The notes under the pieces: generated by a model
What the model saw: only the letters and a program-made list of their open reading frames with translations
Database searches by the model: none
What the model was told of the DNA's origin: nothing
Program-made: the position numbers and the translations under genes
Origin: Variovorax sp.
Lineage (GTDB): Bacteria > Pseudomonadota > Gammaproteobacteria > Burkholderiales > Burkholderiaceae_C
Reading direction: 5' to 3'
Assembly: GCF_035634955.1 (NCBI RefSeq)
Contig: NZ_DASQBZ010000022.1
Location: 100,730-164,729 of the forward strand
DNA length: 64,000 nucleotides
In this document: positions 6,453 through 60,884 of the stretch, piece by piece
Layout of the letters: each line of letters begins with the position of its first letter
How positions within the stretch are numbered: position 1 is the first letter of the stretch

Positions 6453-7229
6453 TCAGCAGCCCAGCGCGCGGGCGAAGTCCCCGGTGTAGACCTTGTGGCC
6501 CTGGTGGGTCAGGCGCGCCCGGGTGTCGACGTGCACCTTGCCGCCGACAGATTGCCAGCGACGGCAGAAGGCGTAGTCCTCGCTCAGGTAGCGGCCGTTG
6601 CCTGGCTCGGCCATGACGTCGAAGAACCGGTAGTGCGCGGGTTGCCGCGCCGCCGCGCGGCCGCCCAGGTCGGGCGTGTAGCGCAATTCCGGCAGGGCGT
6701 CGGCCATGCGCTCGAAGACGTGGCGCGCGATCAGCATGAAGCCGGTCGGCGCGTCCAGCACTTCCAGAAAGCCGTGCGCATCCACCTCGCCCGGCGCGTG
6801 GCGCAGCAGGTTGGCCGGAAAGCTCGCGTAGCGCGCCTCGAAATCCTCGCGCGTGCTGCCCGCGGGCAGCGGCTGGTCCAGGCCCTGCGCGGGCCAGGCA
6901 TCGTGCTTGTGCGGGTAGACGCCGGCCACCACGTCATGGCCCGACAGCAGCAGCCGCAAGGCCGCCTCGGGCTCGAAGCCGATGTCGGCGTCGATCCAGA
7001 ACAGGTGCGTCCAGCGCGGGTCGGCCATGAACTCCGCCACCATGCGGTTGCGCGCCCGCGTGACCAGGCTGTCGCCGTCGAGAAAGCGCGTGTGCATGGC
7101 AAAGCCGTGCGCATACGCCAGGCCGACCAGGCCCAGCAGGCTGCGCACGTAGCCGGTGGTCAGCGCGCCGCTGTAGCTGGGCGTGGCGATCCAGGGCCGG
7201 ATGCCGGGGAGCGCGCCGGGCTCAAGCAT
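6453..7229 (-). CDS. GT-A-fold glycosyltransferase-like protein
   Basis: 'WIATPSYSG', 'SLVTRARN', 'THLFWIDADIGF' (DxD motif), 'YLSEDYAFC'. Start overlaps the stop of the upstream kinase. Confidence 0.6.
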   Translation of the reverse strand: MLEPGALPGIRPWIATPSYSGALTTGYVRSLLGLVGLAYAHGFAMHTRFLDGDSLVTRARNRMVAEFMADPRWTHLFWIDADIGFEPEAALRLLLSGHDVVAGVYPHKHDAWPAQGLDQPLPAGSTREDFEARYASFPANLLRHAPGEVDAHGFLEVLDAPTGFMLIARHVFERMADALPELRYTPDLGGRAAARQPAHYRFFDVMAEPGNGRYLSEDYAFCRRWQSVGGKVHVDTRARLTHQGHKVYTGDFARALGC

Positions 7230-9333
7230 GGAAGGGCACGGGCACCGGCGTGGCCGACTGGCGGCGGGTGGTGAGCAGGGCGCGCAGCTTGGCCGGCGCC
7301 ACCGGCTTGGTCAGCAGGCTCGCGTCATGCGCGCGCAGGCGCTTGAGCGATTCCGGCCCGGTGGCGCCGGACACCAGTACCGCCAGCGCATCGGGCTGCA
7401 GCTTGCGCGCCGAATCGATCACGGCCAGGCCGTCGTCATGGCCGGCCAGCTGCAGGTCGCACAGCACTACGTCGAACTGCGCGTCCGGCTCGGACATGAG
7501 GGCGATGGCATCGGCCACCGTCCGGGTGCACACCGGCACGCAGGCCCATTGGCGCAGCAGCTCGTGGGTGGCGTGCAGGATGGCGTCGTCGTCGTCCACC
7601 ACCAGGCAGCGCAGGCCCGCCAGCGGCGCGCCGGCGGGCGGGGCCGCCGACGGCCTCGGCGCGGGCGCCTGCCGCGCCTGCGCCAGCGTCAGCGAGAAGG
7701 TGCTGCCTTCGAGCAGTGCCGAGCGCAGCTCGATGCGCGAGCCCATCAGCGCCGCCAGCCGCGCGCAGATGGCCAGGCCCAGGCCGAAGCCCTGGCGCCG
7801 GTCGCGCTCGGTGTTGGCCACCTGGTAGAACTCCTCGAAGATGCGCTGCTGGTGGATCGGCGCGATGCCGATGCCGTTGTCGCGCACCTCGATGCGGGTC
7901 GTGCCCGGCCGCGTCCCGCGCCGTGCCGCCACCAGCACCGTGCCTTCGGGCGGGGCGTGGCGGATGGCGTTGCCGATCAGGTTGCCGACGATGCGCAGCA
8001 GCATCGCCGCGTCGCTGTGCACCAGCCGGCCCTGCGGCTTGAACACCATGCGCACCTGCGACTGCGCCGCCTGCGCGGCGTGCTGGGCGGCCAGCTGCTC
8101 GAACAGCGTATCCAGCGCCACCGGCGCCATCTTCGGCGTGAGCACCTGCGCGTCCAGCCGCGAGATCTCCAGCAGGTCGTCCAGCAGCAGCGTCATGAAC
8201 TGCGTGCCTTCCTGCAGGCGCAGTACGGCCGGGCGTTGCGCATCGCTGGCGCCGGGCAGCAGGCCGTCGATGAACAGGCCCATGGCATGCAGCGGCTGGC
8301 GCAGGTCGTGGCTGGCGGCCGCCAGGAAGCGGGCCCGCGACAGCGCGGCCTGCTCGGCCTCGGCCATGCGCTGCAGTGCGACCGACGTGGCCTCGCGCAC
8401 GCGCTCCTCGCTGACCTGGTGGTTGTGGGCCAGGCGTTCGGCCAGCCGGTTGACATCGTGCGCCAGGCTGGCGAGCTCGTGCGGGCGCGCGGCCTCCGCG
8501 GCGCCGCGCGCGGGCGCGGCCTCCACGTCGCAGCGCGTGTCGAAATGGCCGCCCTCGAGCGCGGCCACTGTCTGCGAGATGCGGCGCAGCGGACGGGTCA
8601 CGCTGCGCGCCATGTGACGCACCGAGGCCCAGGCCACCAGCAGCGCGATCAGCGCGATGCCGACGCCGGCCAGCAGCGAGCGATAGCGCTCGCGGCTGTA
8701 GGCGGTGGTGTCGCGAAACGCCTGCACCAGCCCGATCGGCGCCGCGCCGGGGCCCGGGGGGGCGGCGGCGGTGGCGCCGGGCGCCGGCGGGCCGAACGGG
8801 CTGGCGCCGGGCGATTCGCGCAGCCGCACCGGCGCCGTGTACACGCGCAGCTTCTCCAGGTTGCCGACGGCCGGGCCGGCACTGACGAACAGCCCGGCGT
8901 TGTTGCTGATCTCGACACGCGTCGCCTGGCCGCCGCGCAGCGCCGAGTTGGCCACGGCCTGCACGGCGGCCTGGTCGCCGGCGTACAGGCTCAGGTCGGT
9001 CAGCGCCGCCACCTGTCGCGCGATCGCCTGCCCCTCGGCGTCGAAAGAATGCTCCAGCGCCTCCAGCCGCGCATGCGTGAACCACGCGGTGAGCGCCAGC
9101 GCCGCCGCGGCGCAGGGCATCAGGCCCAGGCGCAGCAGGTCGCGCCGGAGATTGCCGCTCATGACGATCGCGTGCGGGCCCGGGCCGGAGCCCCGTGCGA
9201 AGGCGGCCGGCACGAAGGCCGAGCCGGGCGGGTCGTCGGCCGCCCCCGCCTCGGCCGGCGCCGGCGTGGTGCGACGCCGGTCGGCATCCCGCGGGGGTGG
9301 GGTGGCGGCCATGGCGGGCACGGCCGGGCTCAT
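7222..9333 (-). CDS. Hybrid sensor histidine kinase 1 (2 TM, HAMP, HisKA, HATPase, REC)
   Basis: H-box 'SHDLRQPLHA', N-box 'NLIGNAIRH', G-boxes 'DNGIGI' and 'GFGLGL', receiver 'LVVDDD..VLCDLQL..LTKPV'. Start uncertain: ATG at 9333, 9312 or 9162. Confidence 0.9.
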   Translation of the reverse strand: MSPAVPAMAATPPPRDADRRRTTPAPAEAGAADDPPGSAFVPAAFARGSGPGPHAIVMSGNLRRDLLRLGLMPCAAAALALTAWFTHARLEALEHSFDAEGQAIARQVAALTDLSLYAGDQAAVQAVANSALRGGQATRVEISNNAGLFVSAGPAVGNLEKLRVYTAPVRLRESPGASPFGPPAPGATAAAPPGPGAAPIGLVQAFRDTTAYSRERYRSLLAGVGIALIALLVAWASVRHMARSVTRPLRRISQTVAALEGGHFDTRCDVEAAPARGAAEAARPHELASLAHDVNRLAERLAHNHQVSEERVREATSVALQRMAEAEQAALSRARFLAAASHDLRQPLHAMGLFIDGLLPGASDAQRPAVLRLQEGTQFMTLLLDDLLEISRLDAQVLTPKMAPVALDTLFEQLAAQHAAQAAQSQVRMVFKPQGRLVHSDAAMLLRIVGNLIGNAIRHAPPEGTVLVAARRGTRPGTTRIEVRDNGIGIAPIHQQRIFEEFYQVANTERDRRQGFGLGLAICARLAALMGSRIELRSALLEGSTFSLTLAQARQAPAPRPSAAPPAGAPLAGLRCLVVDDDDAILHATHELLRQWACVPVCTRTVADAIALMSEPDAQFDVVLCDLQLAGHDDGLAVIDSARKLQPDALAVLVSGATGPESLKRLRAHDASLLTKPVAPAKLRALLTTRRQSATPVPVPFHA

Positions 9334-10370
9334 GGGGTGGCCGCCGCGACGCGCCGGGTCAACTCGTCGCTGCTGGGCAGCCGCAGGCCCAGGCTGCGCG
9401 CCACGTTGCCGTTGACGCTGACCGTCGACGGCCGGGCCGCCTCCACCAGCAAGGCCTCGTCCGGGCCGGCCACCAGCCGGCGCCCCAGCGCCTGTGCCTG
9501 CCGCGCCATCTGCGCCGGGCCGCACAGCGCGGACGCCAACGCGCCGGAGCGAACCATCGCGTCGCTGGCGCCGAACACCGGCACGCCGGCGCCGGCGGCC
9601 GCACGCAACACCGCGGCAGTGGCGGCGGCGTCGTCGCCGATGGCGTCGGGCAGCAACAGCAGGGCATCGCTGGCGGGCAGCACGTCACGCAGCGCGGGGC
9701 CGATGGCCTGCACGTCGGCGGCCGTGGCCACGTTCAGTGTCCAGGCGCTGCCCGCGGCCTGCTCCAGCGCCTGCACCAGCGGCTGCGACTGCGCCGCCGC
9801 CAGCACGCCCAGGCGGCGCCCCTGCGGCAGCGCCGCGGCGACCAGCCTCAGTTGCGCCGCCATGGAAGGGTCGCGCAGCAGCACGGCCACGCGCCGGCCG
9901 GCGCGGTGCAGGCCGGGGCTGGACTTGAGTTGCTCGTACTCGAGCTGGCTGAGCATGGCCAGCAGCAGCGGGTCGGCGCCGTCGCGCTCGACCGCCGAGC
10001 GCGCCGCTTCCGCACCGACCGCCACCGTCGTCGCCGCGCCGGCCGGGGCCGTGGCGGGTGCGATCCGGCCGCGGGTCCGCACGCCGGCATTCGCGGCCTC
10101 CTGGCCGGTCTCGTTGTCGGGCGCGAGCACGACCGCGGCTGCGGTGGTGCCGGCGCCGTCCAGCCGTATCACGCGGAAGTCGCCGCCCGGCTCCTCGAGC
10201 GTTCGCAGCTGGCGCACGAACTCGTCGTCGGCCGCGCCGCCGGCGGTCAGCACGGTCACGCGCGCCGATGCCGCCTGCGCCAGGCCAGGCGGCACGCCGG
10301 TCAGGATGAGCAGCACGGCGACGAGTGCCCGCAGGGCACCGGCGACGGTCCGCACGCTTTCGAGAAGCAT
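9330..10370 (-). CDS. Periplasmic ABC-type substrate-binding-like protein
   Basis: Signal peptide. C-terminal half 'DALLLLPDAIG..VPVFGASDAMVRSGALAS..VSVNGNVARSLGLRLP' resembles the ABC_sub_bind family. Stop overlaps the kinase 1 start. Confidence 0.7.
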   Translation of the reverse strand: MLLESVRTVAGALRALVAVLLILTGVPPGLAQAASARVTVLTAGGAADDEFVRQLRTLEEPGGDFRVIRLDGAGTTAAAVVLAPDNETGQEAANAGVRTRGRIAPATAPAGAATTVAVGAEAARSAVERDGADPLLLAMLSQLEYEQLKSSPGLHRAGRRVAVLLRDPSMAAQLRLVAAALPQGRRLGVLAAAQSQPLVQALEQAAGSAWTLNVATAADVQAIGPALRDVLPASDALLLLPDAIGDDAAATAAVLRAAAGAGVPVFGASDAMVRSGALASALCGPAQMARQAQALGRRLVAGPDEALLVEAARPSTVSVNGNVARSLGLRLPSSDELTRRVAAATP

Positions 10371-10467
10371 GAAGGTTCACCGCGGTGAGGATCGCCTGAC
10401 TGTAGGGACGCGGCTGGGTTCGCGCGATAAGGCGGAGGGCTTATGTCGCGTGCGTGGCGGCCCTGCG

Positions 10468-10500
10468 GGCATGCGCGCTATGCCGATCGGCATAGCTCAC
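10468..10500. promoter_or_regulatory. Dyad element GGCAT-N7-ATGCCG overlapping a perfect 20-bp palindrome (10477-10496)
   Basis: GGCATGCGCGCTATGCCG at 10468-10485 and GCTATGCCGATCGGCATAGC at 10477-10496, in the gap upstream of the SBP-kinase 1-GT operon. Near-identical element at 60777-60794. Confidence 0.55.
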
Positions 10501-10538: not shown

Positions 10539-12446
10539 TCAGGCCGGTATGCGCAGCGCCGCCAGCTGCGCGCCGATGGCCTGGCGCAGCGCCCTCGGCG
10601 AGACCGGTTTGTAGAGCACCATCACGCCGGCCTGGGCGACTTCGCGCAGGCGGTCCGGCTTGGTCTCGCCGGTGACCAGCAGCCGCGCGGTGCCCGCGCC
10701 GATGCCGCGCGGGTGCTTCTCCAGCGCGGCCAGCACGTCCAGCCCGTTGTCGCCGCCTTGCAGCAGCAGGTCGGAGACCACCGCATCGGGCGGCGCGGCC
10801 CACTGGTCGGCCAGCGCCAGCGCCTCGGCGCGCGACTGCGCGGCCATGACCTCCATGCCCCAGTTCGTCAGCACGACCTGCAGGCCTTCGAGGATGGTGC
10901 GCTCGTCGTCGATCACCAGCACCCGCACGCCGGCCAGGTCGCCGGGCATCGGATCCGCCGGCGCCAGCGCCGCCGGCTCCGACGGTTGCGCATCGGCCAC
11001 CGGTTCGACCGCGCGCACCAGCATCCGCACGCGGGTGCCGCGGCCGGGCACCGAGGCGAGGTCGACGCGCGTGTTGAGCAGCGCCGTCAGCCGCTTGACG
11101 GTCGACAGCCCCAGGCCCATGCCGCGCGGCGAGCCGCTCTTGCGCTGCGGATCGATCTGGAAGAATTCCTCGAACACCCGGGCCTGGTGCTGCGGCGCGA
11201 TGCCCACGCCGGTGTCCCACACCTCGATGCGCACGCCGCGCCCGCGCCGGCGCGCCCCGACCAGGATGCCGCCTTCGTTCGTGTGGCGCAGCGAGTTCGA
11301 CACCAGGTTGTTGAGGATGCGCGAGAGCATCACGTAGTCGCAGCGCACCCAGAGGTCGGTCTTGCGCACCACCAGGCGCAGGCCCTGCTGCTCGGCCACG
11401 TTGCGGAAGTTGCGGCTGATCTCGTCGAACAGCCGGTCCAGCGGGAAGTCGGACCATTGCGGCTGCAGCACCCCGGCGTCGAGCTGCGACAGGTTCAGCA
11501 GTTCGGAGAACAGGCGGTCCAGAGAGTCCACGCATTCGCGGATGTGGCCGATGCGCGCCAGGCGCACCGGGTCGGTCTCGCCGTTGGCCAGGCCGTCGGA
11601 GAACAGGGTGAGCGCATGCAGCGGCTGGCGCAGGTCGTGGCTGGCGGCCGCCAGCAGCCTTGTCTTGGCCTGGCTCGCCACCTCGAGCTGCTGGTTCTTG
11701 CGGGCCAGCTCGGCGGTGGCCTCGCCAATGCGGCTTTGCAGCATCCGCCGGCTTTCTGCCAGCGCCATGGCCGCCTGGTTGAAGCCGTGCTGCAGGCGCC
11801 GGACCTCGGCGGTGCCGGCCACCGCCACCTGGGCATCCTCGCCGGCGCCGAGGCGGTCGACCGCCTCGCCCAGGCGCCGGATCGGTGCGCTGATGCGGCG
11901 CGCCGCCCACCAGCCGGCGAGCCCGACGCCGGCCAGGATGGCGCCGAGCACCAGCAGCACGTTGAGGAAGACGGCCTTGCGCGCAACGGTGACTTCGTCG
12001 AGGCTGATCTCCACCATCACCATGCCGCGGTTGGCGCCGTTGTCGCCGGTGATGGGCGAGTACACGCTCAGGCCCTCGCCGCGCCGCATGTCCGACGTCT
12101 GCGCGTCGGCCAGGATCTCGCCGTCGCTGGTGCGGATCTGCACCTGGTGGATGTGCGGCTGCGAGGCGCCGGCCTGCACCGTGCGCAGCAGGGCGCGCCG
12201 GTCCATCTGCGCCAGCGGCCCCTGCGCCAGGGAGGCGACCTGCAGCGCCACCGCCTGCGCGCTGGTGCGCATCAGTTCGGTCACGTTGGCCAGGTGCTGG
12301 CGCGTCAGGACCACGATGGCGCCGGCGGTGGCCAGCACCGCCGGCAGCACCGCCAGCAGCACCAGCTGCTGCGCCAGCGACAGCCGCGGCAGGCGTTGCA
12401 ACAGGCGCGTTGTGGGCGCGGCCGGCGCATTGGAAGAAGATGCCAT
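10539..12446 (-). CDS. Hybrid sensor histidine kinase 2 (2 TM, HAMP, HisKA, HATPase, REC)
   Basis: 'SHDLRQPLHAL', 'NNLVSNSLRH', 'DTGVGI', 'GMGLGL', receiver 'LVIDDE..VVSDLLL..LYKPV'. Same architecture as kinase 1. Confidence 0.92.
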   Translation of the reverse strand: MASSSNAPAAPTTRLLQRLPRLSLAQQLVLLAVLPAVLATAGAIVVLTRQHLANVTELMRTSAQAVALQVASLAQGPLAQMDRRALLRTVQAGASQPHIHQVQIRTSDGEILADAQTSDMRRGEGLSVYSPITGDNGANRGMVMVEISLDEVTVARKAVFLNVLLVLGAILAGVGLAGWWAARRISAPIRRLGEAVDRLGAGEDAQVAVAGTAEVRRLQHGFNQAAMALAESRRMLQSRIGEATAELARKNQQLEVASQAKTRLLAAASHDLRQPLHALTLFSDGLANGETDPVRLARIGHIRECVDSLDRLFSELLNLSQLDAGVLQPQWSDFPLDRLFDEISRNFRNVAEQQGLRLVVRKTDLWVRCDYVMLSRILNNLVSNSLRHTNEGGILVGARRRGRGVRIEVWDTGVGIAPQHQARVFEEFFQIDPQRKSGSPRGMGLGLSTVKRLTALLNTRVDLASVPGRGTRVRMLVRAVEPVADAQPSEPAALAPADPMPGDLAGVRVLVIDDERTILEGLQVVLTNWGMEVMAAQSRAEALALADQWAAPPDAVVSDLLLQGGDNGLDVLAALEKHPRGIGAGTARLLVTGETKPDRLREVAQAGVMVLYKPVSPRALRQAIGAQLAALRIPA

Positions 12447-12641
12447 TCGTCCGAACTTGGTTAGTGGTATCTAATTGTGTGCCTGCCGACGGTGCTTGAC
12501 CACCGGGCATTGGGCCTGTTCCTTCAGGCCGCCGTATCTGGAACACCGATGACGCTCGTCCGTTTCGCGAACTGCCTGCCGGCGCGACTGCTGCCTTCCC
12601 CCTCCAGCGACCCGTCGCGCGGGCAACGGATTGTCGGCTGG

Positions 12642-25712: not shown

Positions 25713-25736
25713 CGCCGCATCACCACAGGACCGAGT

Positions 25737-26921
25737 ATGCCCATCGAACTATGGCCTCCGCTTCACCTCATCCGCAGTCAGCTGGAACCGGCCTCGCCGG
25801 TGCCGGGCGGCGAGCCGGTGCGGATGGCCGGCGTCGATGCGGACGGCGCGGCGGCGCGCGCGGCCATGCCGGCCGACCTGCTGCTGCCGCTGACCGAGCT
25901 GGCGCGCCGGCGCGAGGCGCTGGCCGCGCGGGCGTTCGGCGCGCGCTGGACGCCGGGGCGCCTTGTCGGCGTGCTGCTGGATGGCCGCCTGCTGGGCGTG
26001 CTGCTCGACCGCCAGGCGCCCGGCGGCGCGTGGCACGGCTTCATGGCCGCCGGCGAGGCCGACTGGGCCGGTCCGCACGACGTGCTGCTCGAGCCTGCCG
26101 ATGAACCCTTCGAGCCGCTGTTCGGAATGATCCAGGCCTGGAACCCGGTCACCCTGATGCCCGCGCCGCAATGGCTGGCGCGGGTGCAGGGCGAGGTTTC
26201 GGCCACGCGGCTGGCCGCCGTCCGCGCGGTGCACGACGAGCATGCGGCCGGCCACGTGCCGGACATCGCGTGCGAGCCCGGGCGCATCGCCCTGCGCACG
26301 ACCGGCGGGGGCGCGTTCAGCGTGCTCAGCGGCACCCCGCTCGCCCCGGACGACGAGCGCGGCGCCTACCAGCGGCTCTACCGCGACGCGGCCGCGCGCC
26401 TGGTCGCCGCCAGCCGCCGCCTGGCCGGTGCGGACGGCACCGGCGCCGCGCCGGCCCGACATGCCGGCCCGGCCGGTGGCGCGGCGGCCGGGGCCGTCGA
26501 CCGGACGGCGGATGCGGCGCCGGCCGCGGCGCCACCGCGCGCGGCGGACGACGGGCCCTGGCAACGCCTGCGGCGCTGGCTGGGCGCCGACGGCTGGGTC
26601 CGGCCCGCGTTCGCGCTGCTGGCGCTGGTGGTGGTCGTGCAGAACCTCGTGCTGCCCGGCGGCGCAGGCGACGCGGACGACGCGCTGCGCTTTCGCGGCC
26701 TGCCCGGAGCGGCGACCGACGCGCCCACCGCCGACCTGGCGCTCAGCTTCCGACCGGACGTGCGCATGGCCGACGCGCAGCGCCTGCTGCAATCGGTGCA
26801 GGCCGAGGTGGTGGCCGGGCCGGATGCGCGCGGGACCTGGTACCTGCGCGTGCCCGACGTGACCGCCAGCCGCGCCGCGCTGGCCGCCTCGCCGCTGGTC
26901 GGCGCGGTCGGGCCGCCCTGA
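25737..26921 (+). CDS. Single-pass membrane protein, putative anti-sigma factor
   Basis: RBS AGGA upstream. Cytoplasmic N-domain, A/P/G linker, TM 'PAFALLALVVVVQNLVL', 'LRFRG', and a C-terminal module 'LSFRPD..AQRLLQSVQAEVVAGPDARGTWYLRV' like that of protease-associated anti-sigma proteins. Confidence 0.55.
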   Translation: MPIELWPPLHLIRSQLEPASPVPGGEPVRMAGVDADGAAARAAMPADLLLPLTELARRREALAARAFGARWTPGRLVGVLLDGRLLGVLLDRQAPGGAWHGFMAAGEADWAGPHDVLLEPADEPFEPLFGMIQAWNPVTLMPAPQWLARVQGEVSATRLAAVRAVHDEHAAGHVPDIACEPGRIALRTTGGGAFSVLSGTPLAPDDERGAYQRLYRDAAARLVAASRRLAGADGTGAAPARHAGPAGGAAAGAVDRTADAAPAAAPPRAADDGPWQRLRRWLGADGWVRPAFALLALVVVVQNLVLPGGAGDADDALRFRGLPGAATDAPTADLALSFRPDVRMADAQRLLQSVQAEVVAGPDARGTWYLRVPDVTASRAALAASPLVGAVGPP

Positions 26922-43413: not shown

Positions 43414-44547
43414 ATGGCCAACCAGGTGTTCGCCAACGGCCGCGAACTCGCCTGCAAGGCCGGCGCGGGAAAGACCATCTGCGCCCTGCCCGACGTGTGC
43501 ATGACGCCGCCCGAGAACCCCGCCACCCCGCCCGGCGTGCCGGTGCCCTATCCCAACACCGGCCTGGCCTCGGACACTACCGACGGCAGCCGCTCGGTGC
43601 AGATCTCGGGCAAGGAGGTCATGCTCAAGAACAAGTCGTACTTCAAGACGTCGAGCGGGGACGAGGCCGGCTGCGCGGCCAAGAAGGGCGTCGTCTCGAG
43701 CAAGAACAAGGGCAAGGTCTATTTCATCGACTGGTCGATGGACGTGAAGCTCGAGGGCGAGAACGCGGTGCGCCATCTCGACAAGACCACCAACAACCAC
43801 GGCAGCCCCACGGCCAACGAGGCGGTGCCCTGGCCATTCGTCGACTCGATGGACGACGCCGAGATCAAGGCGTTGTGCGACAAGGACAAGGCGCAGGAGA
43901 AGGCCGCGTGCGCGGACTACAAGCCGCACAAGGCGGATGGCAAGGACGTGTGCGCCCAGACCGGCCTGGATGGCGACTTCGCCTCCATCAAGGGCGACCT
44001 GCCCGGCGCAGCCAAGAAGGCCAGCGAGAACCCTTGCCTGGCGGCGCGGCGCTGCCGGCTGGTGCCCTACAAGGCGTCGCCCGAGGTGGCCGACGGAATC
44101 GGCGGCTGCTGCCCCGCGCAGACGGGCGACCACATCGTGCCCAAGAGTTCGTTCTTCAAGGACAAGTTCGGCGGCACGCCCATCGGCGGCTGGACCTACA
44201 GCATGAACAAGGCCCCGTGCATGTGTACCGAGGGCGGCAGCTGCTCGGGCACGCACGGCCTGCGGCACACGCACCACAAGACCACGTCGGCGGTGGCCCA
44301 CGGCAAGCCGGTGCCGTTCGAGACCGAGGTCAAGCATTGCGCCAAGGGTGCCAAGGCGGTGGCGCCCCAATGCAACGAGGAGTGCCTGGCGGCGCAGCTG
44401 CGCGAGGGGCACAAGGACATGGGCGATCCGGCCACGGACATCAAGCACTCGTCCACCGGCAAGCCCGACATCACGCACTACGACTCGCTCAAGCAGACGA
44501 TCGACCAGACCGCCGGCAAGCTGGGCCACCCACTTCCATTTCCCTGA
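43414..44547 (+). CDS. T6SS effector: DUF4150 PAAR-like domain fused to a Tox-GHH2-like HNH/EndoVII nuclease
   Basis: N-terminal 'VFANG..PDVCMTPP..GVPVPYPNT..MDVKLEGENAVR..TTNN'. C-terminal 'CLAARRCRLVPY..GCCPAQTGDHIVP..APCMCTEG..HG..H'. Confidence 0.8.
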   Translation: MANQVFANGRELACKAGAGKTICALPDVCMTPPENPATPPGVPVPYPNTGLASDTTDGSRSVQISGKEVMLKNKSYFKTSSGDEAGCAAKKGVVSSKNKGKVYFIDWSMDVKLEGENAVRHLDKTTNNHGSPTANEAVPWPFVDSMDDAEIKALCDKDKAQEKAACADYKPHKADGKDVCAQTGLDGDFASIKGDLPGAAKKASENPCLAARRCRLVPYKASPEVADGIGGCCPAQTGDHIVPKSSFFKDKFGGTPIGGWTYSMNKAPCMCTEGGSCSGTHGLRHTHHKTTSAVAHGKPVPFETEVKHCAKGAKAVAPQCNEECLAAQLREGHKDMGDPATDIKHSSTGKPDITHYDSLKQTIDQTAGKLGHPLPFP

Positions 44548-44564
44548 GCAGGAGGATCCATGTC

Positions 44565-45449
44565 ATGAGCAAGCGTGTGGCGGACGAGCGCGAATTCGTG
44601 CGGGGCGCGGCGTACATGGGCGAGCTGGTCTACGTGATCACCAAGGTCAAGTCGCTGCGCGAGCAGGACATTGCCCACACCAGCCTGGTCGGCGTGTACA
44701 AGGGCGCGTGGGGCGACGCGTTCAACACCACCTGGGACTCCACCGCCCTGGCCTTCGCCAGGCGCGCGCCCGAAAAGGCGGTGCTGATCGGCGAGGACGG
44801 CGAAGTGGCCACCTACGGCAAGGGCCAGCGCACGGACGAGTCGATCCGGCCCGCGCCGGTGATGATCCGCAATGCCCGCACCATCGAGGGCGACGTCTAC
44901 GCCTGCGGCGCCAAGCGGCAGGTGTATCGCCGCACCGGCGAGCACCAGTGGTTGGACATCAGCGCGCCGCGCGCCGCGCAGACCGAGGCGCTGGGTTTCG
45001 AGGCGATCGACGGGTATGGCCACGACGACATCTACGCCGCCGGATGGGCCGGCGAGATATGGCACTACGACGGCCAGGCCTGGCGCTCGTGCGACAGCCC
45101 CACCAACGTGATCCTCACGGCCGTGTGCTGCGCCGGCGACGGCGTCGTGTACGCGGCCGGCCAGGGCGGCGTGATGGTGCGCGGCCGGGGCGACGCCTGG
45201 GAGACCATCGCCTGGGAGGACGAGGTGACGATCGACATGTGGGACCTGTGCTGGTTCCAGGACACGCTCTACGTCGCCGGCAGCACCGCGCTGTTCACGC
45301 TCGCGCAGGACCGCCTGGTGCCGGTGGACATGGGCGGCATCGGGCCGGTGAGCTGCTTCAGCCTGTCGACCGCGCAGGGCGTGCTGTGGTCGGTGGGCAA
45401 GGCCAACGTGGTGGCCTTCGACGGCGCGACCTGGCAGCGCTTCGACTGA
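44565..45449 (+). CDS. Beta-propeller-like protein, putative cognate immunity protein
   Basis: GGAGG RBS. Directly follows the effector. Repeated blades ('DIYAAGWAGEIWHYDGQAW', 'VVYAAGQGGVMVRGRGDAW'). No signal peptide. Confidence 0.6.
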   Translation: MSKRVADEREFVRGAAYMGELVYVITKVKSLREQDIAHTSLVGVYKGAWGDAFNTTWDSTALAFARRAPEKAVLIGEDGEVATYGKGQRTDESIRPAPVMIRNARTIEGDVYACGAKRQVYRRTGEHQWLDISAPRAAQTEALGFEAIDGYGHDDIYAAGWAGEIWHYDGQAWRSCDSPTNVILTAVCCAGDGVVYAAGQGGVMVRGRGDAWETIAWEDEVTIDMWDLCWFQDTLYVAGSTALFTLAQDRLVPVDMGGIGPVSCFSLSTAQGVLWSVGKANVVAFDGATWQRFD

Positions 45450-45460
45450 GACGGCGCGCA

Positions 45461-46765
45461 ATGAACACGCCGGACCCGATCACCGCCGACCCGCCGCATG
45501 CCTTGCCGCTGGTGGTGGGGCGCCACGTGGAGGAAGCGGCGTTGCTGTGCGTGCAGCGGCTGTTCCTGGTGCGCGCCGCACACGTGCGGCTGCACCAGCT
45601 GCGGCGCCTGGACGACCGGCTGGCAGCGCACCTCGACGGCCTGTCGGTGGCCGGGCCGGCCGGTGCCGCGCTGGCGCAGCGCGCACTCGCGGACGCCGGG
45701 CGCGGCGAGATGTTCGCGGCGGTCGCGCTGTCGCTCGAGCGCCGCGACGGCCGGGCGCTGGACGGCCTGCTGGCCGTCGCCGAGGCGCTGCCGCAGACGC
45801 AGGAGGCGGTGGTGTGGGCGCTGGGCTGGGCGTCTGCCGCCTCGCTGCGCGGCGTCACGCGCGACCTGCTCGCATCCGCGTCGGCGTTCCATCGCCGCCT
45901 CGGCCTGGCGGCTTGCGCCATGCACCGGGTGGACCCGGGCGCCTTCCTGCCGCCGGCGCTGGAGGACGACGACGAGGCGCTGTGCATGCAGGCGCTGCGC
46001 AGCGCCGGCGAGGGCGGGCGCACCGACCTGCTGCCGGCCTGCCTGGCGCGGATGCGCCAGGGCGGTGTGCCCACGCGGTATGCGGCAGCCCGCGCCGCGC
46101 TGCTGCTCGGCGAGCACGGGCCGGCCGCGCAGGTGCTCGGCGAGCTGGTCGCCGGGCCGGCGCTGCTCGGCCAGCCGGAGCGCTCGGCCGCCCTGCAACT
46201 GGCCTTGCGCGTCCTGCCGGCGCGACAGGCCGCGCCGGTGCTGCAGGCCGTGCGCGACAGCCCGGGCGGGCTGGCCGAGGCGGTGCGCGCCGTGGGACAC
46301 CTGGGCGATCCGCACTTCGCGCCCTGGCTGATCGAGCGGATGGACGACCCCGCGCTGGCCCGTGCGGCGGGCGAGGGCTTCTCGCTGCTCACCGGCGCGG
46401 ATCTGGCGGCGCTGGACCTGGAAGGCCCGCAGCCGCAGGGCTTCGAGGGCGGGCCGGACGACGACCCCGAAGACGACGCGATCGATTCCGATGCAGACGA
46501 CGGCCTGCCCTGGCCCGCGCCCGCTCGCGTGCATGCCTGGTGGCAGGCGCATGCGGCGGGCTTCGTGCCGGGCGGGCGCTATTTCATGGGCGCGCAGCCG
46601 TCGGCCGGGCATGCCGCGCGGGTGCTGCGCGAGGCCGCCCAGCGCCAGCGCATCGCCGCTGCCGAATGGCTGTGCCTGCTGCGGCCCGGCACGCCCTTGT
46701 TCAACACGGCAGCTCCCGCGTGGCGCCAGCAGCGCTGGCTGGACGCGATGGACGGCCCCGCCTGA
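45461..46765 (+). CDS. TIGR02270 family protein
   Basis: 'HVEEAALLC..QLRRLDDRLAAHLDGL', 'DDGLPWPAP..VHAWW', 'QRQRIAAA'. Found with DUF2169/DUF4150 loci. Confidence 0.8.
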   Translation: MNTPDPITADPPHALPLVVGRHVEEAALLCVQRLFLVRAAHVRLHQLRRLDDRLAAHLDGLSVAGPAGAALAQRALADAGRGEMFAAVALSLERRDGRALDGLLAVAEALPQTQEAVVWALGWASAASLRGVTRDLLASASAFHRRLGLAACAMHRVDPGAFLPPALEDDDEALCMQALRSAGEGGRTDLLPACLARMRQGGVPTRYAAARAALLLGEHGPAAQVLGELVAGPALLGQPERSAALQLALRVLPARQAAPVLQAVRDSPGGLAEAVRAVGHLGDPHFAPWLIERMDDPALARAAGEGFSLLTGADLAALDLEGPQPQGFEGGPDDDPEDDAIDSDADDGLPWPAPARVHAWWQAHAAGFVPGGRYFMGAQPSAGHAARVLREAAQRQRIAAAEWLCLLRPGTPLFNTAAPAWRQQRWLDAMDGPA

Positions 46766-48579: not shown

Positions 48580-49350
48580 GTGGACTTCGACATCGAGATC
48601 GTGACGCTCTCCAGGACGGGGGGACGCAGCTACAACGAGGACGCGTTCGGCCACTGGAACGACGGGCAGCACGTGGTCTGCGTGGTGGCCGATGGCGCCG
48701 GCGGCCATGGCGGCGGCGACGTGGCCTCGCAGGTGGTGCGGGCCAGCGTGCTGGGCGGGTTCGCCGAGCGACCCGGGGTGGATGCGCAGCTGCTGCGCGA
48801 GTTGGTCGAACGGGCCAACCTCGACGTCGTGGCGCGCCAGTCGGAGGGCGGCAGGCTGGCCGGCATGCGCTCGACCGTGGTGCTGGCGGCGATCGACCTG
48901 CCCACGCAGCGTGTCGCCTTTGCCCACTGCGGCGACAGCCGGGCGTACCTGTTCCGCGGCGGCCGGCTGCTGCTGCGGACCGTGGACCACAGCCTGGTGC
49001 AGCAGATGGTGACTGGCGGCATGCTCGACGAGGAGGGCGCCCGCAGCCATCCGCAGCGCAACATGCTGCTGTCGGCGCTCGGGTCGGTCGAGGTGGCGCC
49101 GGACATCACCGTGTCGCCGCCGCTTCCCTTGCAGGTGGGCGACGTGCTGCTGCTGTGCACCGACGGACTGTGGGAGCCGCTGGACGACGACTGCCTGACG
49201 GAGCTGCTGGCCGCCTCGCGCGACGCTGGCGGCTGGGTGGCGCAGCTCGATGCGCAGGTGCGCGCGCGGGCGAAGCCGGGCCACGACAACTACACGGCGC
49301 TGGTGCTGTGGGCGCGCGAGGACGACGAGACCACGCGCCTGCTGCCCTAG
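48580..49350 (+). CDS. pppA: PP2C-family Ser/Thr phosphatase (PppA-like)
   Basis: GTG start. 'NEDA', 'VADGAGGHGGGDVAS', 'HCGDSRAY', 'LLCTDGLW', 'HDNYT'. Confidence 0.88.
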   Translation: MDFDIEIVTLSRTGGRSYNEDAFGHWNDGQHVVCVVADGAGGHGGGDVASQVVRASVLGGFAERPGVDAQLLRELVERANLDVVARQSEGGRLAGMRSTVVLAAIDLPTQRVAFAHCGDSRAYLFRGGRLLLRTVDHSLVQQMVTGGMLDEEGARSHPQRNMLLSALGSVEVAPDITVSPPLPLQVGDVLLLCTDGLWEPLDDDCLTELLAASRDAGGWVAQLDAQVRARAKPGHDNYTALVLWAREDDETTRLLP

Positions 49351-50573
49351 CCTGGCGCTTCGGACCGGCGCGGATGCACGCGCCGGTTCAGCAGCACCGA
49401 GGCCGCCAGGCCCGCCGCACCGATGACCAGCGCCGCCAGCGCGGCCGCGTCATGCCCGGCGCGCGCGATGATGAAGGCGAAGATCATCGGCGAGGCGGCC
49501 GCCAGCCACAGGGCGGGCCTGAGCACCTTGCCGACCGTGCGGCCATAGGTGCCGGCGTCGAAGATCACAAGCGGGATGGCGCCGCGCGTGATGGTGGCCA
49601 GGCCGTTGCCGGCGCCGTAGAGAAAAGCGAAGGCGCCCGCGCCCCACAGCGTGCGACCCGCCACGAGGTAGAGCAGGAAGGACAGGCACAGCCAGGCGCA
49701 AGGCAGCAGGTTCAGGCGCACGGCATCGACGCGGCGCGCCCAGGTCGCCACGCTGAAGCGGCCGGCGAACTGGCCGAAGCCCAGCAGGGTGGACAGCAGC
49801 ACCGCCGTCGCCGCATCCCAGCCGCGGCCGCGCAGCAGCTCCAGGAACTGGGCCGCCATGGCCGTCTGAAGGAACAGCACGCTGATGGCGATGACCGCGA
49901 ACAGCCGATACGCACCGCGCACCGGCACCACGGTGGCCGGCCCGGCCGCCGTGCCGGACGCGTGTGCCGCCGCGCGCCGGCCGGCGCTGGCGGGCAGCGC
50001 CAGATGCAGCAGCGACGCGGCCGCAAGCAGCCCGGCGTAGACCACCAGCGCCGTGCGCCAGCCCAAGCCGTCGATGAGGGCCTGGCCCAGCGGCCAGAAG
50101 ACGGTGGAGGCAAAGCCGCCGAACAGCGTGATGAAAGCGATGTGGCGCCGGGCACCGGCACCGGCCACGTGCGCCATCGAGGCGAAGGCGGCGTCGTAGA
50201 GCGACAGGCGCATCGCCAGCCCGATGAAGACCCAGGCGACGACGAACTGCGCCTTGGCGTGCGTCGTCGCCAGCAACAGGCAGCCGGCGGCGCCGAGCCA
50301 GCAGCCGGCCATCATGGCGGCGCGGCCGCCGTGCCGGTCGATCCAGGCGCCGACGCGGTACGAGGCCAGGCCCATGGTCACCAGTGCCAGCGAGAAGCCG
50401 CCCTGCACGAAGGTCGGGCTCCATTGCATGGTGGCGCCGATCGGGGCGGCGAACAGCCCGATCAGGTAGTGCAGCGTGCCCCAGCCGACGACCTGCGACA
50501 GGCCCAGGCAGACGAGCAGGGGAAAGCCGAGGGAACGGCCGGCGGCGGGCAGGGTCGATGCGGGCGTGGTCAG
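49347..50573 (-). CDS. MFS transporter (start probably non-canonical)
   Basis: About 12 TM segments. TM1 'LGLSQVVGWGTLHY' lies upstream of the first in-frame ATG (50429). The CTG at 50573 follows a GGA. Confidence 0.8.
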   Translation of the reverse strand: MTTPASTLPAAGRSLGFPLLVCLGLSQVVGWGTLHYLIGLFAAPIGATMQWSPTFVQGGFSLALVTMGLASYRVGAWIDRHGGRAAMMAGCWLGAAGCLLLATTHAKAQFVVAWVFIGLAMRLSLYDAAFASMAHVAGAGARRHIAFITLFGGFASTVFWPLGQALIDGLGWRTALVVYAGLLAAASLLHLALPASAGRRAAAHASGTAAGPATVVPVRGAYRLFAVIAISVLFLQTAMAAQFLELLRGRGWDAATAVLLSTLLGFGQFAGRFSVATWARRVDAVRLNLLPCAWLCLSFLLYLVAGRTLWGAGAFAFLYGAGNGLATITRGAIPLVIFDAGTYGRTVGKVLRPALWLAAASPMIFAFIIARAGHDAAALAALVIGAAGLAASVLLNRRVHPRRSEAPG

Positions 50574-50609
50574 GGCGTGGTCCGTGATCGGGGCGGGTGG
50601 ATGCCGACT

Positions 50610-51554
50610 CTAGCCGGTGGCCGCTGCCGGCTGCTCCCGCACGGCCGCCGGCGCGCGCCATTGCCGCACCTGCGCGGCCTCGGCGCGGATCCAGTCCGCC
50701 ACCTGGCGCACCTGCTCGCGCGGCTGCTCGTCGGCCAGCAGCAGCCAGATCGCGTACGGGCTCTTCATCGGCTTGCAGGCCATCTCGACGATCGACAACT
50801 GGCCGCTGTCGATCAGCGGCTGCAGCAGTTCGATGCGCCCGATCGCCAGGCCCTGGCCGGCGAGGGCCGCCTGGACCACCTGGTCGTACTGGTTGAAGCG
50901 CATCATCTGTCGCCGCGGGGGCGGGCTGGACGCATCGGCCAGCCAGGTGCGCCAGTGCAGCCAGGTGCGCGTGTCGTCGTATTCGAGCAGCGGGCAAGGC
51001 TCGCCGCGTGCCAGCGCCTGCGCCACGCGCGGATGCGCCACCGGCGCCAGCGTCTCGTCGAACAGGCGCAGCGCCGCCGACGGGACGGCACCTTCGCGCG
51101 CATAGCGCAGGGCGATGTCGATGCCGTCGGCGCGCAGGTCGCTCACGCGATTGTTGGTGGACAGGCGAACGTCCAGGCCCGGGTGCCGGCCCTGCAGGCG
51201 CGACAGGCGCGGCAGCAGCCACACGGCCATGACGCCGACGCTGGCCGTGAGCGTGACCGCGTGTGCCGCACTGCCGCCGCCGGCGAGTTCGGCGGCGGCT
51301 TCCTGCAACTGCTGCACGGCCGGGTCGGCGCTGCGGAACAGGCGCTCGCCCGCCGGCGTGAACGCCACGCCGCGCTGCAGGCGGACGAACAGGCGCGTGC
51401 CGACCTGGGCTTCCAGCGCATGAACCTGCCGGCTCACGGCGGACTGGGTCAGGCACAGGTCGTCGGCGGCCTGCGTGATGCTCAGCCGCCGCCCGGTGGC
51501 GACGAAGGCCTTGAGCAGGTCGAGCGAGAAGAGACGGGCCAGGGGTACGGACAT
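50610..51554 (-). CDS. LysR-family regulator (GcvA-like)
   Basis: HTH 'LLKAFVATGRRLSITQAADDLCLTQSAVSRQVHALE..LFVR', 'WLLPRL', 'AALAGQGLAI'. Confidence 0.93.
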   Translation of the reverse strand: MSVPLARLFSLDLLKAFVATGRRLSITQAADDLCLTQSAVSRQVHALEAQVGTRLFVRLQRGVAFTPAGERLFRSADPAVQQLQEAAAELAGGGSAAHAVTLTASVGVMAVWLLPRLSRLQGRHPGLDVRLSTNNRVSDLRADGIDIALRYAREGAVPSAALRLFDETLAPVAHPRVAQALARGEPCPLLEYDDTRTWLHWRTWLADASSPPPRRQMMRFNQYDQVVQAALAGQGLAIGRIELLQPLIDSGQLSIVEMACKPMKSPYAIWLLLADEQPREQVRQVADWIRAEAAQVRQWRAPAAVREQPAAATG

Positions 51555-51612
51555 GCAGCGGCGACGCGAACGGATCGTCATTGCATCACATGCCGGCGCA
51601 TGGCGCAGCGCG

Positions 51613-51936
51613 TCAGCCGCAGCCAGCCAGCGCGGCGGCGCCGGGCGGCAGGCGCAGCACCAGCCAGGCGTCGGCGCGCGGCACCCGGACGGCGGCGGGC
51701 GACGGCGCTTCGAGGAGCAGCACCTGGCCGCGCGCCCAGGCGTCGATCAGGCGGACGTCGGTGGCATGGAGCACGCGCGCCATGGCCGGCCCGGGCGCGC
51801 CGCGCGTGAACACCCACATGTGCACCGCCGCCGACGAGCGCGCGGCCAGGGCCTGCTGCGCGGCCAGGCCGGCCAGCGCCAGCGCGCCGAGGATGAGGCA
51901 TGCCGCCAGATGCTGGCGCAGGGCATGGCGCTCCAT
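51613..51936 (-). CDS. Small hypothetical protein with N-terminal hydrophobic segment
   Basis: Fills the gap between the MFS and LysR genes on the same strand. Signal/TM-like 'LAACLILGALALAGLAA'. Confidence 0.5.
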   Translation of the reverse strand: MERHALRQHLAACLILGALALAGLAAQQALAARSSAAVHMWVFTRGAPGPAMARVLHATDVRLIDAWARGQVLLLEAPSPAAVRVPRADAWLVLRLPPGAAALAGCG

Positions 51937-51945
51937 CGCGTGCCT

Positions 51946-53178
51946 TCAGCCCTGGAGCGCCATGAAGCGCTGCGACGGCCGCTCGCGGATCGGCAGGTTG
52001 ACGGCCGCGGCGGCCATCGAGAGGACGATGCACAGCCACCAAACGGTGTCGTAGCTGCCGGTGCGTGCGTAGAGATGCCCGCCCAGGTAGACGCCGAGGA
52101 ACGAGCCGACCTGGTGGCTCAGGAAGACGAACCCGAACAGCATGGCCATGTAGCGCGTGCCGAAGAACGACGCCACCAGGCCGGACGTGGGCGGCACGGT
52201 GGACAGCCACATCAGCCCCATTGCCGCGCTGAACACCAGCACCGTGGCAGGGCTGAGCGGCGCCAGGATGAACAGCCCGATCGCGACGGCGCGGCCGACG
52301 TAGAGGCCGGCCAGGAGCCTGCCCTTGCCAAGGCGCGCGCTCCAGGCGCCGGCCAGGTAGGCGCCGGCGACGTTGAACAAGCCGATCAGCGCGATCGCCC
52401 ACGACGCCAGCGCCGGATGGATGCCGCGGTCGGCCAGGTACGCCGGGAAGTGCGTGGCAATGAAGGCCAGCTGGAAGCCGCAGACGAAGAAGCCGAGCAC
52501 CAGCAGTGCGTAGTCCCGGTCACGCAATGCGGTGCGCAGCAGGCGCAACGGCGAGGGGCCGGCGCCGCCGACGGCCAAGCCGCCGGCCGGCCTGTCGCGC
52601 ACCAGCAGCGCCGCGGGAATGGCGAGCGCCATGGCCGCCGCCATGAGCCACGCGCCCGCTCGCCATCCGTCCACCCCGATCGCCGCCTGCGTCAGCGGGA
52701 CCACGACGAACTGCCCCAGCGAACTGGCGGCCGTGCCCAGTCCCAGTGCCCAGCCGCGGTGCGTCTGCGGCATGACGCGGCCGAGCGCGGCGAGTGCGGT
52801 CGTGAACGAAGCGCCGCCCATGCCGAGGCCGACCAGCACGCCGCCGCACAGCACGATCTGCAACGCCGAGGTGGAAATGGCCAGTCCCGCGACGCCCAGG
52901 GCGTAGAGCACGGCGCCGGCCAGCATGACCCAGCGGGCCCCGAAGCGATCGGCCAGGTAGCCGGCCACCGGCTGCGTCAGGCCCCAGGCCAGGTTCTGGA
53001 TGGCGATGGCAACGGCGTACGCCTCGCGCGAGACACCCAGCTCGCGCGTGAGCGGATCGGTGAACAGGCCGAAGGCGGCGCGCACGCCGAATGAAAGGCA
53101 GGCCACGGCGCAGGCCGCGACCAGCGTGACCCAGAGGGCGGCGCCCAGCGGGGCGGTGGAACGGGAGGTTGGAGTCAT
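51946..53178 (-). CDS. MFS transporter
   Basis: 'FGVRAAFGLF', 'WGLTQPVAGYLADRFG', 'GFFVCGFQLAFIATHFPAYL', 'SHQVGSFLG'. Confidence 0.92.
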   Translation of the reverse strand: MTPTSRSTAPLGAALWVTLVAACAVACLSFGVRAAFGLFTDPLTRELGVSREAYAVAIAIQNLAWGLTQPVAGYLADRFGARWVMLAGAVLYALGVAGLAISTSALQIVLCGGVLVGLGMGGASFTTALAALGRVMPQTHRGWALGLGTAASSLGQFVVVPLTQAAIGVDGWRAGAWLMAAAMALAIPAALLVRDRPAGGLAVGGAGPSPLRLLRTALRDRDYALLVLGFFVCGFQLAFIATHFPAYLADRGIHPALASWAIALIGLFNVAGAYLAGAWSARLGKGRLLAGLYVGRAVAIGLFILAPLSPATVLVFSAAMGLMWLSTVPPTSGLVASFFGTRYMAMLFGFVFLSHQVGSFLGVYLGGHLYARTGSYDTVWWLCIVLSMAAAAVNLPIRERPSQRFMALQG

Positions 53179-53327
53179 GGCGCCGATGGTGATGCCGGCG
53201 CGCCGGCGCCGGCATGCATCCTCGCGTGCGCGGACATGCGAATCCGGAATGCCCGGGGCATCGTCCGACACCGACTGGCGCCGCTTTCCCTTGCCCGGCG
53301 CTGGGAGGGCGCGCAAAGTCCCGCGCC

Positions 53328-53744
53328 ATGGACGACAGCAAGAGCTCGTGGTATTCGCGCTTTGCCAAGGTGGCGGCGCGCTTCTGTGGCCGGCCGCATG
53401 TGTTCACCATCGCGGCCGCGTTGATCGTCGTGTGGATCGTCAGCGGGCCGCTGTTCGGCTTCAGCGACACCTGGCAGCTGGTGATCAACACCGGCACCAC
53501 CATCGTCACCTTCCTGATGGTGTTCCTGATCCAGAACACGCAGAACCGCGACACCGAGGCGATGCAGGTCAAGCTCGATGAACTGATCCGCGCGACGAAG
53601 GGCGCCCACAACGCCCTGCTGGACCTGGAGGAACTCGAGGAGGACAAGCTCGAAGCGTTTCGCCGGCGCTACCAGGCACTGGCCAAGCAGGCGCGCGGCG
53701 AGATCGACCTCGGCGCGGTGGATACGGACTGTCCCGAGGCTTGA
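53328..53744 (+). CDS. Low-affinity iron permease family protein
   Basis: 'GPLFGFSDTWQLVINTGTTIVTFLMVFLIQNTQNRDTEAMQVKLDELI'. Confidence 0.88.
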   Translation: MDDSKSSWYSRFAKVAARFCGRPHVFTIAAALIVVWIVSGPLFGFSDTWQLVINTGTTIVTFLMVFLIQNTQNRDTEAMQVKLDELIRATKGAHNALLDLEELEEDKLEAFRRRYQALAKQARGEIDLGAVDTDCPEA

Positions 53745-57558: not shown

Positions 57559-57560
57559 GG

Positions 57561-57588
57561 TTGTCGCCTGGCGTTGACTGGGGATAAT
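57561..57588 (+). promoter_or_regulatory. Possible sigma70-type promoter for tssJ
   Basis: TTGTCG-N16-GATAAT in the short divergent tssA/tssJ gap. Confidence 0.3.
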
Positions 57589-57630
57589 CAAAGATGCACC
57601 CAGCACGGTCAATGCAACGAAGGCAATAGC

Positions 57631-59304: not shown

Positions 59305-59323
59305 GGCGGGGCCCCGGCGGCAG

Positions 59324-60646: not shown

Positions 60647-60774
60647 GGCGTCTCGCCGCCTTTTCGGGCCGCGGTGGCTGTGGCCGTGCGCCGGCAACTC
60701 TGGCAGACGCTCATCGTCCCACCGCGTTTTGTGAAGTGAAGCGAATTCTTCCCAGCGCTCCCGCGCCGCACCAT

Positions 60775-60795
60775 ACGGCATGTGAGCTATGCCGT
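60775..60795. promoter_or_regulatory. Dyad ACGGCAT-N7-ATGCCGT between divergent tssL2 and response regulator genes
   Basis: Perfect 7-bp arms. The core 60777-60794 matches 10468-10485 at 16 of 18 bases. Confidence 0.55.
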
Positions 60796-60884
60796 TAGAA
60801 AGGCGCGACGCCTTGCTGAGTAATGCTTTCGACGCTATCGTCGGCGTCTTAGAAACATAACGGCCACATTCCCTGGGAAATGTC

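Follow-up and report, generated by a model that had tools for sequence, protein, structure and literature searches.

The locus analyzed here raises the question of whether two similar intergenic sequences, lying 50 kb apart and upstream of an operon encoding a hybrid sensor kinase and of an orphan response regulator, respectively, mark promoters under common control, and which protein might bind them. The stretch of DNA examined, 64,000 nucleotides from a Variovorax sp. with a G+C content of 72%, is referred to throughout as the window.

Two similar sites on either side of a T6SS gene cluster

The first site, at positions 10468–10485, reads GGCATGCGCGCTATGCCG, and the second, at 60777–60794, reads GGCATGTGAGCTATGCCG. 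The two are identical at 16 of 18 positions and both contain the dyad GGCAT-N7-ATGCC, and the reverse complement of 10488–10500, GTGAGCTATGCCG, is identical to 60782–60794 at all 13 positions. These three sequence statements, on which the original prediction of a single regulon was built, are all correct, as is its placement of both copies between genes. Site 1 lies between the stop codon of the hybrid kinase gene HK1 (10539) and the ATG of a substrate-binding protein gene, SBP (10370), both on the minus strand, and site 2 separates the regulator gene (ATG at 60885, plus strand) from the divergent DotU-DUF4384/IcmF_N operon, whose DotU-DUF4384 gene has its ATG at 60646 (minus strand).

Downstream of site 1, the SBP/HK2 operon (6453–10370, minus strand) comprises the gene for an ABC-type SBP (9330–10370) and that for a second hybrid kinase, HK2 (7222–9525 as called, with a true start probably near 9330), both assigned by Pfam, followed by a last, conserved gene (6453–7229) for a 258-aa protein that has no Pfam or NCBIfam family. 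The glycosyltransferase hints for this protein are faint (E = 0.13 to 0.39), and the label 'GT' that rests on them is unverified. HK1 (10539–12446, minus strand; HAMP-HisKA-HATPase-REC by Pfam) ends just upstream of site 1, and beside it a phosphonate-type SBP gene (Pfam) runs divergently on the plus strand. A full T6SS cluster spans 14 kb to 58 kb of the window and encodes TssK, TssL/M, TagF, PpkA, TagJ, TssF, ClpV, VgrG, a PAAR-like protein with a GHH2 nuclease toxin domain, Fha, PppA, Hcp, TssC, TssB, TssA, and TssJ. At 58204–60646 on the minus strand, the DotU-DUF4384 gene (59324–60646) and a gene for a protein having only the IcmF N-terminal domain (58204–59379) form a two-gene operon (Pfam) that is convergent at its end with the TssJ/SciN lipoprotein gene tssJ (57574–58179, plus strand) and divergent from the gene for the NarL/FixJ-type response regulator (60885–61592, plus strand; Response_reg and GerE by Pfam).

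Within the cluster, tssJ overlaps the longest TssA reading frame (56512–58023, minus strand), and the true start of tssA must therefore lie near 57560. Between pppA and hcp the cluster is interrupted at 49347–53744 by two MFS transporter genes, a LysR-type regulator gene (50610–51581), a small unknown gene, and an iron permease gene, none of which is next to the regulator in two compact loci, L009 and L027. The PAAR-like protein with the GHH2 domain is encoded at 43414–44547, and the ∼1 kb after it (44548–45546), which holds no clear high-GC3 gene, is the likely place for a small immunity gene. Matches of at least 99% identity to the regulator locus come from 2018 soil and mosquito metagenome runs (L167–L169; runs X1–X13, each of ∼70–170 million letters), and the runs holding the window sequence are DNA metagenomes only, with no RNA runs for the organism.

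In the window the dyad GGCAT-N7-ATGCC occurs at these two sites only, with 0.19 expected and two or more found in 1 of 100 shuffles, and the 13-mer has exactly two perfect copies, at sites 1 and 2. No enrichment in the window was seen for looser forms of the motif, be it the 13-mer with up to three mismatches or TATGYCG (7 observed, 5.7 expected overall), and the window alone therefore gives no more than modest support. Its statistics taken by themselves are modestly significant, and the real support for the shared match comes from orthologs. Upstream of the regulator the dyad is present in 0 of 80 orthologous loci, and in the closest relative of site 1 (L081) the dyad is already broken and reads TGCAT...ATGTC. 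The exact dyad, which had been put forward as the conserved unit, was accordingly dropped as a functional unit. It is an accident specific to the window, arising because the middle of the window's regulator-upstream copy has drifted and has CGGCATGTGA instead of CCGCTTGGGG.

Conserved elements and the build of the predicted promoters

The real feature underlying 10468–10500 is Block A, a 16-bp inverted repeat of the form 6-4-6, TATGCC-GATC-GGCATA, at 10479–10494 (minus strand), which represents the distal of two putative operators of the SBP/HK2 operon. In the window, Block A is a perfect palindrome containing two copies of the core (G)CTATGCC, and it lies within a perfect 20-bp palindrome, GCTATGCCGATCGGCATAGC, at 10477–10496 that the original prediction did not mention. 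The consensus over 65 orthologous promoters is TASKCC-RTCS-GRCATA-GRCC.

A palindrome situated directly 3′ of the HK1 stop codon, and able in the window to form an 8-bp stem with a 4-nt loop, might instead act as an RNA hairpin that terminates, attenuates, or processes the HK1 transcript, in which case its likeness to site 2 would be incidental. However, there is no T-run, no terminator-like site was found on either strand between 10300 and 10600, and the fold has a z of −0.7, with 44 of 200 shuffles folding equally well. The arms pair poorly in most orthologs (e.g., TAGTCC/GACATA, at 3 of 6 positions), and the outer TA and the inner C/G are invariant, a pattern expected of recognition by a protein rather than of a stem. 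Moreover, the core recurs upstream of the predicted promoter at site 2, where there is no hairpin. The terminator or hairpin reading, which was rejected on the grounds of the missing T-run, the z value, and the unpaired arms, is thus regarded as very improbable.

A second related element, also missing from the original prediction, lies 51 bp nearer the SBP gene than site 1. This proximal putative operator, Block B, occupies with its flank positions 10423–10448 (minus strand; 16-bp frame at 10428–10443) and reads CGACA-TAAGCC-CTCC-GCCTTA-TCGCG on the coding strand and TAAGCC-CTCY-GCCTTA, with flanks, in orthologs. Exact matches to its 21-nt pattern, TAAGCCCTCYGCCTTATCGCG, were found in 11 loci and 78 metagenome stretches. 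Within the window, TAWGSC-N4-GSCWTA is matched at 12 of 12 positions by Blocks A and B alone. Eight loci (L081–L088) were fetched via SBP orthologs, and because L081 and L082 are the same in sequence, seven are distinct; all seven share the order phosphonate-type SBP, HK1, SBP, HK2, 258-aa protein. Both blocks are kept in these loci and in 74 unique promoters, and the distance between them is fixed, at 51 bp in the window's clade or 77 bp in most Variovorax.

Three further observations concern similar or neighboring sequences. The only other near match to the 6-4-6 pattern in the window (10/12), TATGCCCATCGAACTA at 25736–25751, overlaps the beginning of an unknown gene (394 aa) that belongs to the T6SS cluster, and about two such chance matches are expected. 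Most Variovorax SBP promoters have a CRP/FNR-like box, TGTGA-N6-TCACA, between Blocks A and B, e.g., GTGTGATCTTCCTCACAC (L090–L166; L105, L140, L163), so that several inputs converge on them; the box is absent at 10445–10478 of the window, whose clade has the operators 26 bp closer. Upstream of HK1, the block CACAATTAGATACCA (12465–12479, minus strand), 19–33 nt before the HK1 start, is identical or differs by one base in 8 of 8 loci fetched via SBP orthologs, and this AT-rich island in DNA of 72% G+C may represent either the promoter of HK1 or a binding site in its own right.

Between the regulator and DotU-DUF4384 genes, an ortholog logo and an alignment delimit a putative operator, CACCATACGGCATGTGAGCTATGCCGTTAG, at 60769–60798 (plus strand), with a TA-N12-TA frame at 60774–60789 and the core GAGCTATGCC at 60784–60793. 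The regulator-upstream consensus of 28 bp is gCCATAyCGCtTGGGg.CTATGyCGTTsG (ungapped logo of 63 sequences; alignment of 22 loci), and the element is kept in Pigmentiphaga, in which the regulator is 67% identical. This regulator-proximal element is asymmetric and does not fit the 6-4-6 palindrome of Blocks A and B. The conserved unit is best described not as a dyad but as an asymmetric operator family of ∼20–24 bp, having the invariant core GGnCTATGyC within 16-bp TA-N12-TA frames and represented in the window by three copies, namely Block A, Block B, and the one between the regulator and DotU-DUF4384. A further conserved block in the same intergenic region, at 60704–60722, reads GGCACATGCCCATGTCCC in orthologs and GGCAGACGCTCATCGTCCC in the window. 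This TGGCAC-like block resembles a sigma-54 −24 element; the −12 spacing is off by one and the strand is wrong for the DotU gene, and the sigma-54 reading was rejected by eye.

The full 30-nt matrix derived from the regulator-upstream sites scores 29.9 at 60769–60798 and at most 1.5 anywhere else in the window, where its second-best plus-strand match falls at the position of Block B. Because it gave no strong second sites in the window, shorter, independently trained matrices were needed. These were trained on regulator-upstream sites only (60 orthologs) and tested on 74 SBP promoters at the 1e-4 background quantile. The half-site matrix (GGnCTATGyC) matches 70 of the 74 SBP promoters, compared with 2.1 expected, at fixed positions at the distal end of Block B and in the right arm of Block A, and a 23-nt matrix matches 67 of 74, compared with 1.9 expected, with the match over Block B in constant position and orientation in 64. 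A motif derived from one type of promoter thus predicts the other, and the shared element is kept at both promoters in dozens of Variovorax-group genomes, as the original prediction would have it. What survives of the proposed regulon is therefore a shared, conserved cis-element at the SBP/kinase and regulator/DotU-IcmF_N promoters, and what does not is the dyad named as its unit.

The likeness between the loci might also be due to chance, or to a dispersed REP- or MITE-like repeat without a regulatory role, and the weak within-window statistics given above for TATGYCG and for the mismatched 13-mer are consistent with such an origin. However, the 12-nt core CTATG[CT]C[GT][TA]T[CG]G has 75 matches in the 1.62 Mb of window and loci, of which only 2 lie outside the two intergenic types, both in coding sequence and with ∼1 expected. 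In addition, position and orientation relative to the genes are fixed in dozens of species, and each metagenome contig stretch has a single copy of Block B. The specificity and both matrix tests exclude chance or a repeat within these 1.62 Mb, and an origin of this kind is considered extremely unlikely. Conservation within one bacterial family could partly reflect shared promoter ancestry rather than selection, although the fixing of positions across orthologs that are 64–87% identical argues against ancestry alone.

A half-site scan of the window gave 10 matches, compared with ∼13 expected, and none beyond the three known elements lies at a convincing T6SS promoter. The absence of further sites at the core T6SS operons means that only the DotU-DUF4384/IcmF_N operon, and not the whole T6SS, is tied to the element. 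The inclusion of T6SS membrane genes in the regulon, as originally proposed, thus holds for the DotU-DUF4384/IcmF_N pair and does not extend to the T6SS as a whole.

The elements also stand at fixed distances from predicted promoters. For the SBP/HK2 operon, the spacing in orthologs points to the −10-like hexamer TACAGT at 10399–10404 (minus strand). Block B is followed at a distance of exactly 23 nt by TACATT or TACAGT in 63 of the 64 unique promoters compared and would then occupy about −51 to −36. On the DotU side, the predicted promoter of the DotU-DUF4384/IcmF_N operon has the −10-like hexamer AAGAAT at 60745–60750 (minus strand), 23 nt from the frame; of 59 unique loci, 50 have an ATTCTT-like hexamer (48 exact and 2 with one mismatch) at a distance of 22–24 nt, and the alignment of regulator loci likewise shows it to be conserved. 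At both the SBP and the DotU-side promoter of the window, 38 bp separate the start of the TATG core from the hexamer's far end. Because the matrix matches fall at fixed positions, the SBP and DotU-side promoters are seen to share one build, consisting of the frame with its TATGYCG end distal, 23 nt, and a −10-like hexamer. This shared build would center the site near −43.5, in a class II position. A 16-bp inverted repeat centered near −43.5 is in the classic class II position of LuxR/NarL-type activators.

A promoter of the regulator gene itself is predicted at 60813–60841 (plus strand), with the −35 element TTGCTG (60813–60818), a 17-nt spacer, and the −10 element TATCGT (60836–60841). CTTGCyG and TATCtT/TATCGT are conserved in regulator orthologs and match the consensus weakly, and the operator would lie at about −79 to −50 relative to this predicted promoter. 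Transcription from the three predicted promoters would start near 10392 and 60738 (both minus strand) and near 60848 (plus strand). A strict sigma-70 scan calls neither the TACAGT hexamer of SBP/HK2 nor the −35 and −10 elements of the regulator.

The candidate binding protein and its genomic neighbors

With scores of 77.2 bits for Response_reg and 70.0 bits for GerE, each exceeding its cut-off, the regulator is placed in the NarL/FixJ family. Its best match among solved structures is NarL, and from its sequence the receiver carries the phospho-acceptor motif DLNMPG, as does that of NarL. Its best NCBIfam match is ErdR (NF041830), at 128.6 bits compared with a cut-off of 390 bits, and its match to UvrY/GacA is weaker (59 bits), so that it would be classed as a relative of ErdR/CrbR and not as an equivalog. 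Orthologs that are 64–87% identical occur in Variovorax, Xenophilus, and Pigmentiphaga, and the organism itself is placed in the Variovorax/Xenophilus group. The regulator is the only GerE-type HTH protein among the window ORFs scanned, and it is conserved next to the element in every locus.

Both HK1 and HK2 match the NahK/ErcS-family C-terminal region in NCBIfam, and TorS and LuxQ are among their NCBIfam matches. No Hpt domain or protein was found among the ∼45 window ORFs scanned, and the link from kinase to regulator is therefore not closed; for NahK, the Hpt is the separately encoded HptB. The kinase module and the regulator are found ∼40–55 kb apart on one contig of a metagenome-assembled genome (JAFEEG01), and in L009 and L027 both are found together with the DotU-like gene inside 10 kb, where a scan of intervening genes revealed no T6SS core genes (sheath, tube, or baseplate). 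Linkage of these three components is thus maintained across Variovorax even where no T6SS core separates them. L009 (1–10700) and L027 (1–10700) also hold extra phosphonate-type SBPs, TagF, a PP2C phosphatase, and IcmF_N. A literature search returned nothing relevant on a Variovorax T6SS regulator, on DotU-DUF4384, or on this system, and ShkRS of V. paradoxus EPS (PMC3283707), considered as a possible counterpart, was rejected because it is a different system, an adjacent regulator/kinase pair at another locus.

These observations make the NarL-type regulator a candidate for the protein that binds the elements. Alternatively, the elements may be real operators that are bound by one or more regulators encoded elsewhere, the NarL-type regulator being merely a target. 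The regulator-proximal element is asymmetric, unlike the clean palindromes of Blocks A and B, and two proteins could for that reason be involved. Another binding protein would also be compatible with the CRP-like box in most Variovorax SBP promoters, with a relay that is not closed by any Hpt in the window ORFs scanned, and with the presence in the cluster of the LysR-type gene at 50610–51581. However, the LysR gene and its MFS neighbors are missing among the genes scanned in L009 and L027, yet the regulator-upstream element persists there, complete in L009 and as its core CCATA-N12-TATGYCG in L027. Furthermore, a TA-N12-TA frame near −43.5 is typical of GerE-type HTH dimers, of which the regulator is the sole conserved neighbor, and the control of its own gene by the regulator would be unexceptional, since two-component systems commonly autoregulate. 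Binding by some other regulator is therefore considered unlikely, and the NarL-type regulator is most likely the binding protein.

Several known systems resemble this one in part. In the CrbS/CrbR (MxtR/ErdR) systems of Pseudomonas and Vibrio, as proposed here, a NarL/LuxR-type response regulator is partnered by a hybrid histidine kinase. The imperfect inverted repeat from which CrbR activates transcription spans −52 to −36 (PMC5715377), which is the position that Block B and the DotU-side frame would occupy, and its ACTU motif, like the elements described here, is an imperfect inverted repeat of ∼16–17 bp with TA-rich ends just before a sigma-70 promoter (PMC5715377). In contrast to CrbS, the kinases encoded in the window have no SLC5/STAC transporter domain and are paired with periplasmic SBPs. 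The ACTU core is GAC-N4-GTC, compared with TAWGSC-N4-GSCWTA or GGnCTATGyC here, and the targets of CrbR are acetate-utilization genes, whereas the system proposed here would act on its own signaling genes and on membrane genes related to the T6SS. The motif was accordingly judged not to be ACTU, with which it agrees in position and architecture but not in sequence.

The 7-2-7 heptamer sites of Escherichia coli NarL have the consensus TACYYMT-NN-AKRRGTA. Like the elements in the window they are 16-bp inverted repeats that start with TA(C/T) and end with (G/A)TA, but they differ at the inner half-site positions (Y at position 4 in NarL, G here), and the sensors here are not NarX/NarQ-like and show no tie to nitrate respiration genes. 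The arrangement in which a gene for a periplasmic binding protein adjoins that for a hybrid HAMP-HisKA-HATPase-REC kinase is shared with TorT-TorS and LuxP-LuxQ. TorS, however, contains an Hpt domain itself, and the regulator to which it signals is of the OmpR type and recognizes direct repeats, whereas no Hpt is encoded in the window ORFs scanned and the candidate regulator is NarL-type. In GacS/GacA, too, T6SS loci are linked to a FixJ/NarL-type regulator that acts together with a hybrid or unorthodox kinase. The GacA box is TGTAAG-N6-CTTACA, which Block B (ATAAG-N8-CTTAT) resembles superficially, but the spacing is N8 rather than N6, and the sites described here precede protein-coding genes and not genes for small RNAs.

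A proposed autoregulatory circuit

The position of the frame, the kinship with CrbR/ErdR, the status of the regulator as the only GerE protein, and the genomic linkage lead us to propose the regulator as the output of the kinases and as the protein that would bind the operators. In the proposed circuit, the two SBP-coupled hybrid kinases would pass phosphate to the regulator via an Hpt encoded elsewhere, and a dimer of the regulator would bind at about −43.5 and activate, rather than repress, the SBP/HK2 and DotU-like promoters. The same site between the regulator and DotU genes, at about −66 from the regulator's own predicted promoter, would control the regulator gene, closing an autoregulatory loop around a signaling module that flanks the T6SS cluster. 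It appears reasonably probable that the sites first noticed represent one arm of an operator family to which the NarL-type regulator binds, thereby regulating its own synthesis and feeding back on the sensor operon.

Such a circuit is of an ordinary kind, an autoregulated two-component system with a NarL-type operator, previously undescribed in Variovorax-like soil bacteria. A bolder and rather doubtful extension is that the SBP-coupled kinases, the regulator, and the truncated TssL/TssM paralogs constitute one self-regulated envelope-sensing module derived from T6SS membrane parts, in which the DotU/IcmF_N pair would form an operator-controlled signaling or scaffold complex and not a piece of the secretion machine. 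If this were true, an envelope-sensing module would persist in Variovorax without an adjacent T6SS core. The finding that a truncated TssL/TssM-like pair has the shared operator and that the core T6SS operons of the window do not narrows the probable targets, and the shared element connects the orphan regulator with probable sensors encoded at a distance of 50 kb. The wiring proposed here names the co-controlled promoters together with the sequence and position of their elements, so that the exact bases to mutate are identified, and it thus provides a testable scheme for an uncharacterized two-component system that brackets a T6SS cluster in widespread soil and rhizosphere bacteria.
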